From a virus, in IMG/VR virus record IMGVR_UViG_3300046168_000050: a DNA stretch of 64,000 nucleotides; one strand, given 5' to 3'. Positions 27,328 through 35,071 of the stretch are shown here, piece by piece; the stretch's first letter is position 1; each line of letters begins with the position of its first letter. The notes below the pieces were generated by a model. That model made no database searches, had not been told where the DNA came from, and saw only the letters and a list, made by a program, of their open reading frames with translations. The position numbers were made by a program, and so were the translations under genes.

Positions 27328-28388
27328 TGAACAAGAAGCCTCTGGTATTCGTCTTGAATTCGCCTTGCAACCTCTGGCGTAAATATTTTAATTTGTGACA
27401 GATTATCATTGTTTTCTATAAAGAGTTGTTGTATAGTTTTACCAGTATATCCAAGATTATTTAAAGTAAAGGGAAGATTATCTACGCCTCCATCAATTTG
27501 CCTTGGAAGATCTACTATATTACCATTAGCGTCTTCATAATGATGCACGCTTTCATACTGCGCAAATGATTGTTGAGCCACAATCCCAAAACTATCCGGA
27601 TCTGCAGCGGGAGAACCTGTCCAAAGTCCTATGTCTTTTTCGCCCTTTTGAGACCAAAGTTCTTGAGAGCCTCCTGGCAATCCGTAGCTAGATAGAGTGA
27701 CAATACCAGTGGCTCTAACTCCTCGTGCTAATTCAGGAGCAGAGAAAGTTATAGTAGGAGCAGATTTATAATCATCTCCGCCATCAATAACTGCTACGCC
27801 TGACACTTCTCCATCTTCATTTAACTCTGGCACCGCTACAGCTCCACCGCCGCCTCCACCCGAAAATGAAATAGTAGGAATATCTGTATAACCAGATCCT
27901 CCATTAGTAATAGCTATAGAAGCAACTTCAACAATAGGCTTAACAATAAGATGCCCAAGGTCTAAGTCCTTTTTAATAATTTTACCCTTGAAAGGTGGAT
28001 TATCAAATGTCCCATCAATATCTTTTTTTGCAATAAGATCATTAACAAAAAACTCTGACTGAAGATTCGAATTTGTTTTAATTGTAGTATTAGGATAATA
28101 TAACTTAAGATAATCATATACTTCAGATGGAGTAAACGGCCAACCTTGCGTTCTTAATTTTTCATTTAATAAATAGAACTGCCAATAATAATCGGTAGTT
28201 CCATATAAGTTTTGAGATAATACATCGGGTCTCTCGCCGTTCGGAATAACTATTTCGGTATATACCCCTATTTGATCAGACAGTTGATCTATAATATCAA
28301 TATAAGTCGTTAAATTTTGAAACGCTGCTTGCGAATTCTCGTTACCGAAATTATAAGCAACAAGTGGAAAGTTCGTAAAAAAAGTCAT
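27324..28388 (-). CDS. gp53: Baseplate wedge subunit gp53
   Basis: FF.NFP...Y.F, I.NGERPD.LS..LYG...YYW...L.N......WP, HHYED; carries inserted GGSGY repeats. Confidence 0.88.
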   Translation of the reverse strand: MTFFTNFPLVAYNFGNENSQAAFQNLTTYIDIIDQLSDQIGVYTEIVIPNGERPDVLSQNLYGTTDYYWQFYLLNEKLRTQGWPFTPSEVYDYLKLYYPNTTIKTNSNLQSEFFVNDLIAKKDIDGTFDNPPFKGKIIKKDLDLGHLIVKPIVEVASIAITNGGSGYTDIPTISFSGGGGGGAVAVPELNEDGEVSGVAVIDGGDDYKSAPTITFSAPELARGVRATGIVTLSSYGLPGGSQELWSQKGEKDIGLWTGSPAADPDSFGIVAQQSFAQYESVHHYEDANGNIVDLPRQIDGGVDNLPFTLNNLGYTGKTIQQLFIENNDNLSQIKIFTPEVARRIQDEYQRLLVQ

Positions 28389-29443
28389 TATCCAGCTCCT
28401 GCACCTGTTAAGTAATCATTATAATCGTGACCATCATTTTCAACATCGTTTCTATTAAGAGTTCTTTCTTCAACAAAATTTAGACTAATATCTACTTCTT
28501 GAGGATTTCCATCTGTATGAAATGCCATTGCATTAGGGTTATAAACTGCATCAAAGCCTTGAAGAAAACATGGCAACAAACCAGTTGCTACTTGCTTAGT
28601 TTCTCCTGGTATCCCAGCATTTAAAAAGTTTCCATATTCCATTGTTATATTAAATTTAGATGGATATTTTAAAGTAAGACTTGTTCCTTGAGCCTGGCTT
28701 ATCGGCACGCCTATGTCTGGGTACATTGCAACTCTAAACCATTTTATCATTTTTTTAATAACTTCTGACTCTTTTGCTGAAGTAGGAATTAATTTAAATT
28801 GAAACCTAAACGTTCTAAGCCCCACACCGTTTAAAATATTTCTATTATTTGGATTGATGGTCACTCCAGTAGAAGTAGCAATCGCCCCTGCTATTTGAGG
28901 CGCACCAAATCTTTTAGCTGTTCTTTGCACCGCCGCGGCAGCGCCGGCGTCACCTAGATCACCAAATGCCGCTGCTGCAATATCACTCATGATACTTTTA
29001 AGAGCTTCTCCACCTAAAGCAACGGCACCAGTCCCGGCAGCAACACCTTGCATAGCAGTAGCACCAATTGCACCTAATTCTAAAGAACCGTACTGAATAT
29101 TATCCTGAACTTGAATTGATTGCGGTAGATAGAGAATAGCCTCACCTTTATTAATAGTTTTATTGGATTTTCCTTTTACGGTTTGATGTTCACTTCCAGT
29201 AAGACCAGATGTTAATATATCTTGTATAGAATTAAATTCATCTGCTGCAGCAATTCCCGCAATAGGAGCCGCGTCTACTCCTAAGGAAGCTAGGCCCTGA
29301 TTAGCAAGACTCGACAAACTCTGATAGTCTTCATCAAAGGCTTCGAACCGAATAAAACCTCTATAATCATCTTTATTTTCTAGAGGAAAAACAAATTGTG
29401 GACTATATGTATTGATAGTAAATGGATATGGATCATTGGGCAT
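28388..29443 (-). CDS. gp48: Baseplate tail-tube cap gp48
   Basis: LYLPQSI...D...Y, NPN....F/L.G..LRTF.FQFKL.P.S..E...I..I..FR.AM.P, L.F.E. Confidence 0.85.
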   Translation of the reverse strand: MPNDPYPFTINTYSPQFVFPLENKDDYRGFIRFEAFDEDYQSLSSLANQGLASLGVDAAPIAGIAAADEFNSIQDILTSGLTGSEHQTVKGKSNKTINKGEAILYLPQSIQVQDNIQYGSLELGAIGATAMQGVAAGTGAVALGGEALKSIMSDIAAAAFGDLGDAGAAAAVQRTAKRFGAPQIAGAIATSTGVTINPNNRNILNGVGLRTFRFQFKLIPTSAKESEVIKKMIKWFRVAMYPDIGVPISQAQGTSLTLKYPSKFNITMEYGNFLNAGIPGETKQVATGLLPCFLQGFDAVYNPNAMAFHTDGNPQEVDISLNFVEERTLNRNDVENDGHDYNDYLTGAGAG

Positions 29444-30005: not shown

Positions 30006-30590
30006 ATGAGCAACTTATTTCAAAAAATAGAACAAGACGCCTTTAGGGCAGGTATTACGCCACGCACAAGTCAGTCGCGTGACTGGTTTCGTCGTAAGGT
30101 ACAAGGTATCAGACGAATCAATAGAAATCAATTAATGAAAGATGAGCAACTATCTCTCGGCAGCAGACGTCTTATTGGATCAATGCAGATGTTTTTCTAT
30201 GATCCTAAGCATAAAGATAAACTCCCGTTCTATGATAGCTTTCCGCTTACTATTGTATTAAGCCCTGCACCAAAAGGATTTATGGGACTTAATTTGCATT
30301 ATATACCACCTACGCTGAGAGCAAAGTTTTTAGACTCTTTATTGGATATTACAAATAATAATAAGTATGACGAGACAACTAAATTTAACGTTACATATAA
30401 TACATTAAAGAGAGCATCTAAGTTTAAATATTTTAAGCCGTGTATCAAACATTATCTTGCGGGAAACGTGAGAAGTAGATTTGCTGAAGTACACGCGCCC
30501 GAGTGGGAGATCGCAGCGTTTCTTCCAACCGCTGATTGGCAAAAAACAAGTGCTGCAGCTGTTTATTCTTCTTCAAGGAAAATGATCTAA
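30006..30590 (+). CDS. gp2: DNA end protector gp2
   Basis: FFYDPKHK.KLPFYD.FPL.....GF.GLNLHY.PP..R, KPC.KHYL, W..A.FLP. Confidence 0.93.
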   Translation: MSNLFQKIEQDAFRAGITPRTSQSRDWFRRKVQGIRRINRNQLMKDEQLSLGSRRLIGSMQMFFYDPKHKDKLPFYDSFPLTIVLSPAPKGFMGLNLHYIPPTLRAKFLDSLLDITNNNKYDETTKFNVTYNTLKRASKFKYFKPCIKHYLAGNVRSRFAEVHAPEWEIAAFLPTADWQKTSAAAVYSSSRKMI

Positions 30591-31303
30591 TGATAGATAA
30601 ATTTAAAGGGCTTATATCTAAAAGAGATGGCATGGCTAGGTCAAGTGTATTCCAGGTCATACTTCCTTCTATCAACGGAGTAAGAGGAGAAGAAGTAAAC
30701 CTCTTATGCAAAGATGTACAGTTACCAGGCAGACAGATACTAACTAGTGAGCGGCGGATCGGCATGCAAGTTGAGAAAGTTCCGTACGGGTATGCAATAA
30801 CAGATACAAGTATGACATTCCACGTGATGAATGACTATGGTATTAGAAAGTATTTTGAGACATGGCAAAACTTGGCAGTTAATCAAGAAACAAAGGAAGT
30901 AGGATACCAAAGAGGGAAAGAGGGTTATGCCAAACCTGTTCTAATTAAGCAACTTAAAAAGGGATTTGGTCTTCCAGTGTATTCTACACCACTTGGGCTA
31001 CCAAAACTGCCGGCAGAAATTCAAAGCCGATTGCCTAAAATCGGACCATTTGATTTTGCACAAGGTGAACTTGATTTAGATTTTGTTACAAAAGATCAAG
31101 TCGTTTATAGTTGCAGACTCATAGATGCTTTCCCGACATCAATGAATGCTATACAATTAAATAACGAGTTAGACGGTTTAGTTGAGCTTAACGTTCAGTT
31201 ATCTTATACTAACTGGGAACCAGTAGAATTTGGCGTTCAAAATGCCACTGAGAAATTTATTAAAACACAAATAGGGACCGCACTTAGCAGAGCATTTTCG
31301 TAA
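30590..31303 (+). CDS. gp54: Baseplate tail-tube initiator gp54 (gp19-like fold)
   Basis: Start moved to ATG 30590 (TAATG overlap). G.AR...F.V, LC..V.LPG, YF..WQ, L..AFP........L......L.V..SY. Confidence 0.75.
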   Translation: MIDKFKGLISKRDGMARSSVFQVILPSINGVRGEEVNLLCKDVQLPGRQILTSERRIGMQVEKVPYGYAITDTSMTFHVMNDYGIRKYFETWQNLAVNQETKEVGYQRGKEGYAKPVLIKQLKKGFGLPVYSTPLGLPKLPAEIQSRLPKIGPFDFAQGELDLDFVTKDQVVYSCRLIDAFPTSMNAIQLNNELDGLVELNVQLSYTNWEPVEFGVQNATEKFIKTQIGTALSRAFS

Positions 31304-31315
31304 AGGATGAAATGA

Positions 31316-32020
31316 ATGGCACTACCCAAATTAAATGATGTACCAAAGTATGAAATCACTATTCCATCAACAGACAAAAAGGTATATTTTAGACCGTTTT
31401 TAGTTAAAGAACAAAAGGTTCTGCTAATAGCATTAGAGTCTCAAGATGAAAAACAGATATTACAGGCAGTAGTAGATACTATTAAGGCCTGTATATATGA
31501 AGATATTGAAATCGATAAGTTAGCAATATTTGATCTTGAATATATTTTTCTACAAATCAGGGGAAAAAGTGTAGGTGAGAGCGCTGATCTTATAATGAAG
31601 TGCAGAGAATGCGACCACGAAAATAAAGTTAAAGTAGATCTAGAAGATATAAAAATTAAAAAGGGACCTGACAAAAAATTTGTTCTTAATGACCAGTTTA
31701 CTATAGAAATGAAATATCCATCCTATGAGATTATTTTAAGAGAAGATATGAATACAGATTCGGCTGTAGAAAATATTTACAACACTGTTTTGTTATGCAT
31801 GAGTTGTCTCTATACGGAAGATGATATTATTAGGTTTGAGGAATATACTGATGAAGATAAAAAAGAATTTATGGAAAGTCTTACGTCTGAACAATTTGAT
31901 AAAATTGTAACATTTGTTAGTAATCTTCCTGCAATAACATATGATTTAGAGTATGACTGTGAATCGTGCGAACATAGTAATAAAGAAATATTAAGAGGAA
32001 TACAAGATTTTTTATCCTAG
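31316..32020 (+). CDS. gp26: Baseplate hub assembly protein gp26
   Basis: MALPK...P.Y...IPST...V.FRPFLVKE.K.LL.A, D.EYIFL.IR.KSVGE, two CxxC motifs, terminal L.G..DF. Confidence 0.93.
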   Translation: MALPKLNDVPKYEITIPSTDKKVYFRPFLVKEQKVLLIALESQDEKQILQAVVDTIKACIYEDIEIDKLAIFDLEYIFLQIRGKSVGESADLIMKCRECDHENKVKVDLEDIKIKKGPDKKFVLNDQFTIEMKYPSYEIILREDMNTDSAVENIYNTVLLCMSCLYTEDDIIRFEEYTDEDKKEFMESLTSEQFDKIVTFVSNLPAITYDLEYDCESCEHSNKEILRGIQDFLS

Positions 32021-32205
32021 GCCTCTCTCATGATAGTTTAATAAACTATTTCAGGGTAAACTATCAGTTAATACAAAATCATAAGTATTCATTAACTGAC
32101 GTAGACCAAATGATACCGTGGGAGAGGGAGATTTATGTTAGTATGCTTATTGATGATATTAAAAAAATGAATGAAGAAAACCAAAGACAAAATATGCAGA
32201 GGTAA
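32011..32205 (+). CDS. gp51: gp51 baseplate hub assembly domain, with no own start; probably reached by a -1 frameshift from gp26
   Basis: The -1 frame reads FILGLSHDSLINYFRVNYQLIQNHKYSLTDVDQMIPWEREIYVSMLI..., the gp51 motif HKYSL....M.PWER.IY. The first in-frame ATG lies inside the motif. Stop at 32203-32205. Confidence 0.85.
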   Translation, partial: FILGLSHDSLINYFRVNYQLIQNHKYSLTDVDQMIPWEREIYVSMLIDDIKKMNEENQRQNMQR

Positions 32206-32207
32206 CT

Positions 32208-34121
32208 ATGGCAAATTTAAAAGCAGTAGTAGAACAATTAAAAGAGCAAAACGGTGTTCTCACTAGTGTAAATGAGAACATTTCTGCTATGCTTAAAGGC
32301 CAGATTCAAGAATCTTTGGATAACCAAAGAAAAGCCGGCGATGAAGAAGAAGAAAAAAGAGAAGCTCGCAAAAGTAGGATTAAAGATAGGGATAAGCCAA
32401 CTCCAAAATCGTTTAGCGGAGGGTTTGTTGCAGGAGCTGGATTAGGAGGCTTATTAGACGGGTTTAAAAATGCGCTGGGCGGTACCGCCGGCGGCTTGGG
32501 CATAGGGGCTTTACTGGGCATGGGAGCAGGGAGATTGTTTATGCCTGCTTTAGGCGCTTTACTCGGAGTTAAATATCTAGATAAATGGGTTGATCCCATT
32601 ATTGATAAGATCACTGGTGATGATGCAACTTGGTCAATGTTTGGCAAGCAAATAGATGCATCTAAAATTGTATCAGGATTTGCTGGAGGTCTGGCTCTTA
32701 TTTTCGGCCCTAAGTTAATTAGTACAGCTGTTAGTAGTTTACTGTCAGGAGGGGGAAGAGGTCCTAACAGTAATGGCCCAGGACTAAGAAAAACATTTTT
32801 AAGTAGATTAGGAATCGGAGGCATAGCTATAGCTGTAGCAGATTCTGTAGGAGACTTTGCTAAAACTTTAACCGGGTCAAAAGATTTTGCTGACACCGTA
32901 TCTAATGCGATGGCGGCTACAGGGGTAGGGTTTATGGTCGGAGGGCCAGTTGGTGCTCTTGTGGCCGCCGGAGCTTATATAGCTTACGAGTCAGTGTCAG
33001 CTATCGCCGCTTGGATGAAAGGCAAAGGCGATAGAATGAAGCAAAAGCAACTTGAAGAATTAGATAAGTTGCAATTAGATGTCGACAGGCTTATTCAAGA
33101 AGGTAAAGATGAAGCTGCAGGCGAAGTAGCAAAGTCCATGATTGCAAGTCAACGCTCTTTCATGTCTGGAATATTTCAAGGCCAACTAGCAGCAGATGAA
33201 GCATCGTATTTTGCTGATAAATCTAGAACAGCATTTGAAGGCGCGAAGGCTGCAGGAGATACTTCTGCGATGGCCGCCGCGACTGAACTAGAAGCAGATG
33301 TATTGGGTAGAAGCGATGTTGGTTATGATGAAGGATTAGATCAATTTCGTAGATTAACTAATCAGCTTATTGAATCAGGAGCAGATGCTACAGCTGCAGC
33401 AACTCAAATTGCTGTTTCGGCTTCATCTATAGGAGGAGCCTTTACTGATGCCGCGGAGGCAGCTAATGATTTAGCTGCTAAAAATATTATATTAGAAGGT
33501 GAAAGAACTCATCGTATACAACAGGCAGGAAGAAGAATTGGCAGATCTAGATTTGGAGATGCTGAAGCCAGAGTAGGAACCACTCAAGAAGTCTTTTTAA
33601 GGGATTTATTAAGAAGAGCTAGTACTGAAGCAAATGCAGAACGGTTAGCTGGCATAGTATCTCCTATGGATAGTCCGTTTGGAGCTGCAGTAACGCTATC
33701 AGATGCTGCGGCTATGTTTGCAGTTGAATATAAAAAGATATCTAATGAACAAGCCCTAGAAAATTATTACAAAAATAATCCAGAAGCCGCTGAAAAGTCT
33801 GTTCTTAATTTATTCTCAGGCATCTTAAATAATATGGGATTAAGAGCGTATAAAAATAGCCAAGATAGTTCACCAAATCTTATGCCGGCAACAGACAGTA
33901 GAGAAACTAATTTTGATATACTTGACTCATTTGGTGCTCTAGCTGCAGCCGGTAAGTCTGCGCCAATTGTTGTAAATGAAGGTGACATTATTACAAATAA
34001 CAATAATGCTGGAACTAGTATGCCAAAACCTGCTCCTAAGTCTGCAGTTGATGCTGTTGCAACGACTAAGCAAATGATCAGAGGTTTTGCCGGTGCTCAT
34101 AATAAGTGGATGATGGATTAG
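32208..34121 (+). CDS. Tape measure / gp29-like protein
   Basis: 637 aa, helical and Ala/Gly-rich with hydrophobic segments; follows gp26/gp51; C-terminal PIVV....NNN motif. Confidence 0.7.
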   Translation: MANLKAVVEQLKEQNGVLTSVNENISAMLKGQIQESLDNQRKAGDEEEEKREARKSRIKDRDKPTPKSFSGGFVAGAGLGGLLDGFKNALGGTAGGLGIGALLGMGAGRLFMPALGALLGVKYLDKWVDPIIDKITGDDATWSMFGKQIDASKIVSGFAGGLALIFGPKLISTAVSSLLSGGGRGPNSNGPGLRKTFLSRLGIGGIAIAVADSVGDFAKTLTGSKDFADTVSNAMAATGVGFMVGGPVGALVAAGAYIAYESVSAIAAWMKGKGDRMKQKQLEELDKLQLDVDRLIQEGKDEAAGEVAKSMIASQRSFMSGIFQGQLAADEASYFADKSRTAFEGAKAAGDTSAMAAATELEADVLGRSDVGYDEGLDQFRRLTNQLIESGADATAAATQIAVSASSIGGAFTDAAEAANDLAAKNIILEGERTHRIQQAGRRIGRSRFGDAEARVGTTQEVFLRDLLRRASTEANAERLAGIVSPMDSPFGAAVTLSDAAAMFAVEYKKISNEQALENYYKNNPEAAEKSVLNLFSGILNNMGLRAYKNSQDSSPNLMPATDSRETNFDILDSFGALAAAGKSAPIVVNEGDIITNNNNAGTSMPKPAPKSAVDAVATTKQMIRGFAGAHNKWMMD

Positions 34122-34147: not shown

Positions 34148-35071
34148 TTAGTCTTCTGCTGCTAGTTTAGCAAAATACGACATGGTGTCATCATCATCCA
34201 TAGATGAACTTTCTGCCGTAGCTGCAGGTGCTGATGGCATTGCAGGCTCAGGAGCGGCTGTTACCGGAGAACTATAAGACTCTGTAGTATCTAATGATAC
34301 CTGCTCGCGGACAGTTCGTGGTACAGACTCTCCAAGGACTAGAGCAAGACGTGACTTAAGTTCGTCATATGTCTTATAGCTTTTTGGATCAGTCCATTCA
34401 GTCATTTCATGTTGTTTTTCATAAATGACTTCTTTTTTCTCATCGTCTCCGGCAAGTAATTCCGAAGCTGACTTAAACGAAGAAGCATCATAGTTTGGAT
34501 AACCTTCGACCTTACGAATCTTAAGCGTAAAGTCTGCACCTTCCCACATATCAAATGGATTAACCGGAGCTTCATCAGGAAACTGAGGCTGCATGCTATC
34601 CATAATCTTGTCAAAGATTTTCTTGCCGAAGCGATAAAGTTTAACTTGACCTTCGTTCTCTGGATTTGCAGGATCTGAAATAACTAGTACGTTTGCAATA
34701 TATCGTAAGTTACGTTTGCGCTCACGTACAGTACGTTTGGCTTCGTCAGAGCCATCTTCATTCCACAGCTTACTGTTACTTTCAGCTAATGGATCTGGTT
34801 GACCAATAGATGTAAGAGACTTCTCTACATACCATTGACCTGTTGGGCCTTTGAAGAAGTGATCCCAGTACCGAACCCATGGTGTTGGGGCTTCTGCGTC
34901 TCCTGGTAGGAAACGGATTACAGCGTAACCATTGCCAGCCTTATCTCGTGTTGGTGTCCAGAAGCGTGGATCTTCTGATTGACGTTGAGATTGTTGACCT
35001 GTGTTTTCTTGAGCCTGATTAATCAAGCTATTAAGATCAGTACGATTACGTTTTAGTGCTGCAAAACTCAT
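34148..35071 (-). CDS. gp32: Single-stranded DNA-binding protein gp32
   Basis: D.RFW.P..DK.GNGYAVIRFLP, GKKIFDKI, NPFD.W.GADF.LK, Y.NYD.S.F, acidic tail SYFAKLA. Confidence 0.96.
   Translation of the reverse strand: MSFAALKRNRTDLNSLINQAQENTGQQSQRQSEDPRFWTPTRDKAGNGYAVIRFLPGDAEAPTPWVRYWDHFFKGPTGQWYVEKSLTSIGQPDPLAESNSKLWNEDGSDEAKRTVRERKRNLRYIANVLVISDPANPENEGQVKLYRFGKKIFDKIMDSMQPQFPDEAPVNPFDMWEGADFTLKIRKVEGYPNYDASSFKSASELLAGDDEKKEVIYEKQHEMTEWTDPKSYKTYDELKSRLALVLGESVPRTVREQVSLDTTESYSSPVTAAPEPAMPSAPAATAESSSMDDDDTMSYFAKLAAED

Follow-up and report, generated by a model that had tools for sequence, protein, structure and literature searches.

A gp26-type tail assembly chaperone gene with a putative programmed −1 ribosomal frameshift in an uncultured T4-like phage

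The gp26 gene and its −1 frame extension

The stretch of DNA considered here (the window, 64,000 nucleotides of the virus record IMGVR_UViG_3300046168_000050) harbors a gp26-type gene at positions 31316..32020 of the plus strand, which is assigned to the tail assembly chaperones (TACs) by its matches to PF12322 and phrog_150 and by a fold model. Its short product, TAC-N, comprises 234 residues. At its 3′ end the gene carries the elements of a predicted −1 frameshift. The last codons of gp26, read directly from the sequence, are GAT (32006), TTT (32009), TTA (32012), TCC (32015) and TAG (32018), and this order places a slippery heptamer T_TTT_TTA at 32008..32014 in the X_XXY_YYZ register, one codon 5′ of the frame-0 stop TAG (32018..32020). 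T_TTT_TTA is also the heptamer of HIV-1 gag-pol. A Shine-Dalgarno (SD)-like AGAGGA is located 8 nucleotides (nt) 5′ of the heptamer (31994..31999) and overlaps Arg-Gly codons, of which the Gly is invariant. In the −1 frame, an open stretch extends from 31984 to 32205 and is closed by the stop codon TAA (32203-32205). Between 31984 and 32110 it contains no ATG, GTG or TTG before its LSHDSL motif; the sole ATG of the frame is found at 32110. On the 3′ side, 7 nt after the heptamer, CCUCUCUCAU (32022-32031) can pair with GUGGGAGAGG (32118-32127) over 10 bp, including 2 G-U pairs. An earlier note on this DNA, made from the letters alone, had described the in-register heptamer, the start-less open frame with its gp51 motif, the AGAGGA element and the 10-bp stem, and our own reading of the window agrees with it in each of these respects.

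The extension in the −1 frame (32014..32205) consists of 63 codons and the TAA, and is homologous to the C-terminal tail of T4 gp51. The encoded peptide matches the C-terminal half of phrog_634, annotated as 'baseplate hub assembly catalyst' (E 2e-23, profile positions 59-118 of 121), as well as the final 46 positions (236-281) of phrog_150, the profile of the gp26 family. The predicted long product, TAC-NC, would combine residues 1-233 of gp26 with the 63-residue extension to a protein of 296 residues, with the junction ..GIQDFL-ILGLSHDSL.. and the junction peptide ..GIQDFLILGLSHDSL...

The domain composition of both predicted products corresponds to that of the T4 proteins. The gp26 of the window matches PF12322 (T4_baseplate) with an E value of 1.1e-56 over profile positions 2-218 of 219, and phrog_150 with an E value of 1.9e-61. 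T4 gp26 (208 residues) consists of the PF12322 domain alone; T4 gp51 (249 residues) consists of the same domain (residues 1-201, E 3.9e-52) and a tail. The −1 peptide is similar to residues 202-247 of T4 gp51 (BLASTP E 9e-7), and the predicted 296-residue fusion is colinear with T4 gp51 across the junction (..QDFLILGLSHDSL.. versus ..VDVFKLLVNPDEI..). In T4 the short and the long form are encoded by two divergently transcribed genes, whereas the window phage is predicted to obtain both from one gene by recoding. The C-terminal ..RGLKEFFELL is retained in T4 gp26, with the two Phe codons TTC and TTT, such that the run is broken (L082:7803-7850, minus strand), as expected if the frameshift was lost after gene duplication. 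No second gp26/gp51 copy is found within the 64-kb window, and no match to PF12322 is found in the nearest record, a 15.8-kb fragment (G001).

The assignment of gp26 to the TACs is based on a structural model. The AlphaFold model of gp26 (predicted local distance difference test, pLDDT, 82.8) has an N-terminal domain at approximately residues 1-95 with the TAC fold, known as the spiral-forming domain from Pell et al. 2013. In a fold search with VIA-align against 48,161 PDB representative chains, model residues 1-96 matched best to 3fgx (Rbstp2171, Z 8.4), 3klu (YqbN, Z 7.3) and 2ob9 (HK97 gp13, Z 7.2), each with 85-86 aligned residues. These three occupy ranks 1-3, and the next match has a Z of 4.5. 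All three structures are named as solved tail assembly chaperones in PMC9603447, which cites Pell et al. 2013. Since the modelled fold of the N-terminal domain matches three solved TACs, we identify gp26 as a TAC. Foldseek, run against the PDB, returned nothing at E <= 0.001 and only weak matches to 2ob9 and 3fgx. The gp26 protein also contains two invariant CxxC pairs (C96/C99 and C215/C218), which hint at a zinc ribbon attached as an extra module to the TAC-fold domain. We note that the C-terminal remainder of the model has weak matches to zinc-ribbon folds (Z ~3), and that the solved small TACs (96-119 residues) have no room for a CxxC module. T4 gp26 and gp51 are both listed as hub assembly chaperones, and gp51 is not part of the virion (Leiman et al. 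2010, PMC3004832).

Conservation of the slip site, the helix and the upstream element

For comparison, 80 related viral contigs with 37-49% gp26 identity to the window were taken, of which 78 were usable and, together with the window, resulted in 79 loci. In all of them the C-terminal piece of gp51 (gp51-C) is in the −1 frame relative to gp26 and is found behind an in-register T_TTT_TTN, whose last base is T in 55 loci, C in 12, A in 10 and G in 2. The conserved heptamer and constant register, which the earlier note had proposed to look for across T4-like genomes, are therefore present in each of these 79 loci, far beyond chance expectation. The length of the T-run is 6 in 23 loci, 7 in 8, 8 in 47 and 9 in one locus, and the run begins at codon position 3 in every locus. 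The codon preceding the run ends in T in 79 of 79 loci, compared to a background of ~75%, and its residue varies (Asp, Asn or Ser). Likewise, the first Phe codon, corresponding to the P site, is always TTT, compared to a background of 76%. The synonymous sites at the heptamer are fixed.

The coding phase of the alignment changes at the same place. According to the per-column entropy, the most variable position 5′ of the heptamer is codon position 3 of frame 0; in the segment from the heptamer to the internal ATG, the third position of the −1 codons takes its place. The phase thus switches from frame 0 to −1 at the heptamer, well 5′ of the internal ATG, and in these alignments the signature of purifying selection is visible in both frames. 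A possible −1-frame start before the motif is absent in 59 of the 79 loci, and the heptamer itself marks the opening of the −1 frame in 19 loci. The absence of gp51 starts, as anticipated in the earlier note, hence applies to the window and to the majority of the loci. A gp51 start of its own in relatives, which the earlier note had counted as evidence against its reading, is seen in some distant lineages, in which an ATG overlaps the gp26 stop, and not in the window or its nearer relatives.

Among distant isolates, the arrangement of T_TTT_TTN and a −1 frame extension is found in Sinorhizobium phiN3, Pseudomonas Astolliot, Aeromonas Aeh1 and Vibrio PVA23 (Schizotequatrovirus), and also in Rhizobium AF3, the cyanophages S-WAM1 and S-CAM1 and the Pelagibacter phage Mosig. 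The lineages with an overlapping ATG are represented by Rhizobium AF3 (L100), Stenotrophomonas Ps15 (L099) and Vibrio K452 (L095), where a TGATG or TAATG at the gp26 stop opens the −1 open reading frame (ORF); in K452 there is no in-register heptamer. In some lineages the C-terminal piece may therefore exist as a free small protein made by translational coupling, a third solution beside frameshifting and the two genes of T4. A weak gp51-C-like match in the −1 frame (E 9.5e-6) is also found 3′ of the gp26 homologue of Salmonella phage Marshall (Ackermannviridae; L098 1201-2162). It lies within ~500 nt lacking an annotated gene, and there is no clean X_XXY_YYZ heptamer at the stop.

The downstream stem is also present in the minimum free energy fold of positions 32015-32135 (−30.8 kcal/mol, z −3.36). 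There it forms a helix of 11 bp between the 5′ arm CCUCUCUCAUG (32022..32032), which encodes L-S-H-D in the −1 frame, and the 3′ arm CGUGGGAGAGG (32117..32127), which encodes P-W-E-R in the same frame. In this fold the helix closes a three-way junction, namely an 84-nt loop with two inner hairpins. An alignment of 73 sequences, with the arms at columns 45-54 and 141-150, is essentially gap-free, and the 7-nt spacer between heptamer and helix is therefore constant. Standard pairs account for 86% of the cells, versus 48-71% if the 3′ partner is slid by 1-3 columns. Two pairs covary: the pair 45/150 is CG in 36 and UA in 17 sequences (Fisher test, 3.7e-6), the pair 48/147 is CG in 33 and UA in 18 sequences (9.7e-6). 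In an unbiased scan of 462 variable Y x R (pyrimidine by purine) column pairs, these two are ranked highest by two orders of magnitude. With the sequences collapsed into 50 clusters (55% identity), both pairs retain their significance (p 6e-5 and 8e-4, respectively). There is no association in the crossed pairs 45/147 and 48/150, and GC content was rejected as the source of the C-G/U-A covariation on account of these null results. A weaker association between columns 45 and 153 (p 7e-4) goes together with a linkage of 150 and 153. Covariation in the stem had been named as a check in the earlier note, and it is found at the two pairs that are free to vary. Judged from the alignment, the helix is probably real, and a role as frameshift stimulator is plausible.

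An SD core (AGGA, GGAG or GAGG) is found within the 15 nt 5′ of the heptamer in 45 of 79 loci (57%). Resampling of synonymous codons results in an expectation of 26.1 +/- 3.8 loci, and in other 15-nt windows of gp26 the frequency is 5.8%. The SD-like element is enriched beyond the constraint of the protein, and it is not universal. The AGAGGA of the window is a possible candidate for an upstream stimulator.

Proposed ribosomal slippage and rival explanations

We interpret the locus as a site of programmed −1 ribosomal frameshifting within the TAC gene of a T4-like phage, and assign to this interpretation a probability of roughly three in four. Most ribosomes would read gp26 up to the TAG and release the TAC-N of 234 residues. 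A minority would pause with tRNA-Phe on UUU in the P site and tRNA-Leu on UUA in the A site (32009-32014), slip back by one base to re-pair on U_UUU_UU, and then translate the −1 frame as far as 32205. The product of slippage would be the 296-residue TAC-NC, whose additional 63 residues correspond to the C-terminal tail of gp51. The pause would probably be aided by the GC-rich helix of 10-11 bp located 7 nt downstream, which closes the 84-nt multibranch loop, and the AGAGGA located 8 nt upstream may contribute as well. TACs of the G/GT type bind the tape measure protein and are required for tail assembly; by analogy to lambda G/GT and to T4 gp26/gp51, both forms would act in the assembly of the hub and the tape measure, and would be absent from the virion.

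The same fusion could arise by transcriptional slippage, if the RNA polymerase adds one U in some of the mRNAs and ordinary translation follows. Productive slippage of the polymerase is known from long homopolymers of A or T (about 8-9 or more), for instance in Thermus dnaX, IS elements and Shigella mxiE, and the T-runs of 7-9 in 56 of the 79 loci, with T7-T8 in most relatives, are in favor of this alternative. The window and 22 other loci, however, have runs of T6 only, which fall short of the length at which known bacterial polymerases slip efficiently. In the T8 class, the eighth T is simply the first base of the stop codon that comes after T_TTT_TTT. The run is in the X_XXY_YYZ register in 79 of 79 loci. 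The register is weaker evidence than the helix, since it is partly set by the conserved D/N/S-F-F/L residues. A covarying helix at a fixed spacing of 7 nt is needed by ribosomal frameshifting and not by polymerase slippage, and the enrichment of SD-like sequences upstream likewise points to the ribosome. Ribosomal slippage therefore gives the best fit to the T6 runs, the structure of the T8 class, the invariant register, the covarying helix and the SD enrichment taken together, and we regard the transcriptional route as unlikely; in the relatives with T7-T9 runs it may operate, with the same protein as its product. Less likely still is an independent translation of a small gp51, either from the ATG at 32110 (31 residues), from a non-canonical codon, or by termination and reinitiation after the gp26 stop. 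GenBank records do annotate short ORFs from internal ATGs (C48C1 and Mosig), and the ATG overlapping the gp26 stop in AF3, Ps15 and K452, the last without a heptamer, makes a free-standing small gp51 plausible in those lineages. Against this explanation stand the missing start codons between 31984 and 32110 in the window, the lack of a start before the motif in 59 of the 79 loci, and the lack of an SD-like sequence before the ATG at 32110. Moreover, the stretch of 32 codons 5′ of the internal ATG shows protein conservation in the −1 phase and aligns to residues 202-232 of T4 gp51.

It could also be asked whether the frameshift is an artefact, such that the true sequence has T7 and encodes a simple fused gene, or whether the gene is broken. 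Homopolymer runs are prone to error, and the earlier note, which had raised the T7 case itself, suspected other indels in this assembly. The T6-A junction gaTTTTTTatccTAG is, however, identical in seven independent assemblies, which are derived from different samples and runs and are ~97% identical to the window; the alternative of a sequencing error is thereby excluded. The best 120 of at least 7,900 gp26 homologues in the protein collection all have 233-245 residues and end with ..G(I/L)QDFF or ..DFLS, hence the gp26 stop is conserved, and an in-frame fusion of ~296 residues is not found among these 120. Decay is also at odds with the −1 offset that is kept in all loci and with the apparent purifying selection in both frames. 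We consider artefact or decay to have next to no probability.

Several observations nevertheless weigh against ribosomal frameshifting as proposed here, in addition to the long T-runs of most relatives. RNAalifold does not return a consensus structure for the 73-sequence alignment; the named helix was therefore tested by pair counts and by the unbiased scan of columns. Most pairs of the helix are held constant by the conserved motifs that its two arms encode (LSHD and PWER), and the covariation rests on two pairs, with about one quarter of the cells unpaired at each of them. For a bacterial −1 stimulator, a loop of 84 nt is unusual. The SD core is restricted to the 45 loci given above and is partly explained by the invariant Gly. 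The 637-residue protein encoded directly downstream, in the position of a tape measure, has no match to a Pfam or PHROG tape-measure family. Finally, we infer from sequence the slippage itself, its efficiency, the roles of the helix and of the SD-like element, and the binding partners.

A more far-reaching proposal, which we put forward tentatively and with somewhat less than even confidence, concerns the role and the history of these elements. The conserved long-range helix (32022-32032 with 32117-32127), located inside the coding sequence of the extension, would be the stimulator of the frameshift, and covariation at sites that are synonymous or free would have maintained it across the uncultured marine T4-like phages. 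In combination with the strict register it would indicate a classical ribosomal −1 frameshift. Recoding of a single gene would then probably be ancestral, and the two genes of T4 as well as the overlapping-ATG forms of AF3, Ps15 and K452 would be derived.

Known frameshift systems, annotation and gene neighbourhood

The gpG/gpGT pair of lambda and the conserved −1 frameshift of TAC genes are described by Levin 1993 and by Xu, Hendrix and Duda 2004, as reported in PMC12859696. Like lambda gpG and gpGT, the predicted gp26 products comprise a short and a long form with a common N-terminus. The earlier note had proposed that gp26 and a gp26-gp51 fusion are the T4-like equivalent of G/GT, and the register, the missing start, the covariation, the homology to T4 gp51 and the TAC fold are all in agreement with this proposal. 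No sequence similarity between gp26 and gpG is detectable. In comparison with gpG, gp26 is larger (234 residues) and has a CxxC...CxxC module after the TAC domain. The heptamers are also different, G_GGA_AAG in lambda and U_UUU_UUA here. Lambda is not known to require a 3′ structure; in the gp26 system a covarying helix is present. In the cassettes of E. coli dnaX and of IS911/IS3, an X_XXY_YYZ heptamer is flanked by an SD-like element ~8-10 nt upstream and by a 3′ helix beyond a spacer of 5-9 nt. The gp26 locus has this three-part layout, with AGAGGA as the candidate upstream element. Unlike the compact hairpin or pseudoknot of dnaX and IS911, the gp26 helix is long-range, with its 84-nt loop and two inner hairpins, and the SD element is found in only 57% of the relatives.

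The TACs of T4-like phages have been identified previously (Vladimirov, Gautam and Davidson, Virology 2022;566:9, doi 10.1016/j.virol.2021.11.003). According to the PRFect paper, this study reports some T4-like phages with one short gene and one long fusion gene, and in PMC12846349 the description of poly-T slippery sequences within TAC-N genes of T4-like phages is credited to it. Our search for other relevant literature on gp26, gp51 and the frameshift did not find any. As far as these accounts describe the 2022 study, the core interpretation is already published, and the locus is a new, unannotated member of the described group. Possibly new are the long-range helix with its support from covariation and the explicit argument that the mechanism is ribosomal. 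If the 2022 study does not include the helix, or assumes a non-ribosomal route for these phages, the helix reading would add to or correct it.

The frameshift would also account for an oddity in the annotation of gp51. In cyanophages and marine vibriophages, gp51 is described as having ~20% of the length found in non-marine phages and as lacking the first ~200 residues, and Aeh1 is the only phage in which gp51 is missing, with no explanation offered (Sullivan et al. 2010, PMC3037559). The 'truncated' gp51 of that study is the same C-terminal piece as discussed here, and the frameshift would supply the N-terminal 200 residues from gp26. The 'missing' gp51 of Aeromonas phage Aeh1 (AY266303.2) corresponds to an unannotated gp51-C homologue at L096:1878-2084 (hidden Markov model E 5.7e-10), which lies in the −1 frame immediately 3′ of gp26 and is preceded by GAT TTT TTC, that is, T_TTT_TTC. 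In none of the GenBank records inspected are the two ORFs joined; the C-terminal piece is left without annotation or is given a start at an internal or overlapping ATG. A correct annotation would provide a full-length long chaperone in every such phage and would link gp26/gp51 of T4 hub assembly to the G/GT scheme that is universal among long-tailed phages. The covarying helix, in turn, is a concrete and testable element in a very abundant group of ocean viruses.

Downstream of the extension, the gene in tape-measure position (32208-34121, plus strand) encodes a Gly/Ala-rich protein of 637 residues. Its ATG at 32208 follows 2 nt after the −1 stop, and the gene order is syntenic in relatives. 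A BLASTP comparison of the protein with T4 gp29 shows no similarity. A language model places it in a look-alike cluster with PF25671 (T4_Tape_measure) with a score of 0.91, which is a lead only. The gene is tape-measure-like by position, size and language-model resemblance only, and its likeness to gp29 is by synteny only. The earlier note had called its ATG tape-measure-like; the position stands, and a family match in support of the name is lacking. In relatives, the syntenic gene is variously annotated as a peptidase, a hypothetical protein or an internal virion protein. In the window, the 637-residue gene is followed by a gene for a gp32-like single-stranded DNA-binding protein (34148-35071, minus strand).

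Both genes and gp26 belong to a T4-type tail and baseplate block, in which gp26 is preceded by a gp48-like gene (28388-29443, minus strand), a gp4-like head closure gene (from 29484), a gp2-like gene (from 30006) and a gp54/tube-like gene (30536-31303). For the gp54/tube-like ORF, the start listed is a TTG that overlaps the 3′ terminus of the gp2-like gene. Near-identical contigs have the gp54/tube-like gene called with 237 residues and with a start directly at the gp2 stop; its true start is probably the ATG near 30590.

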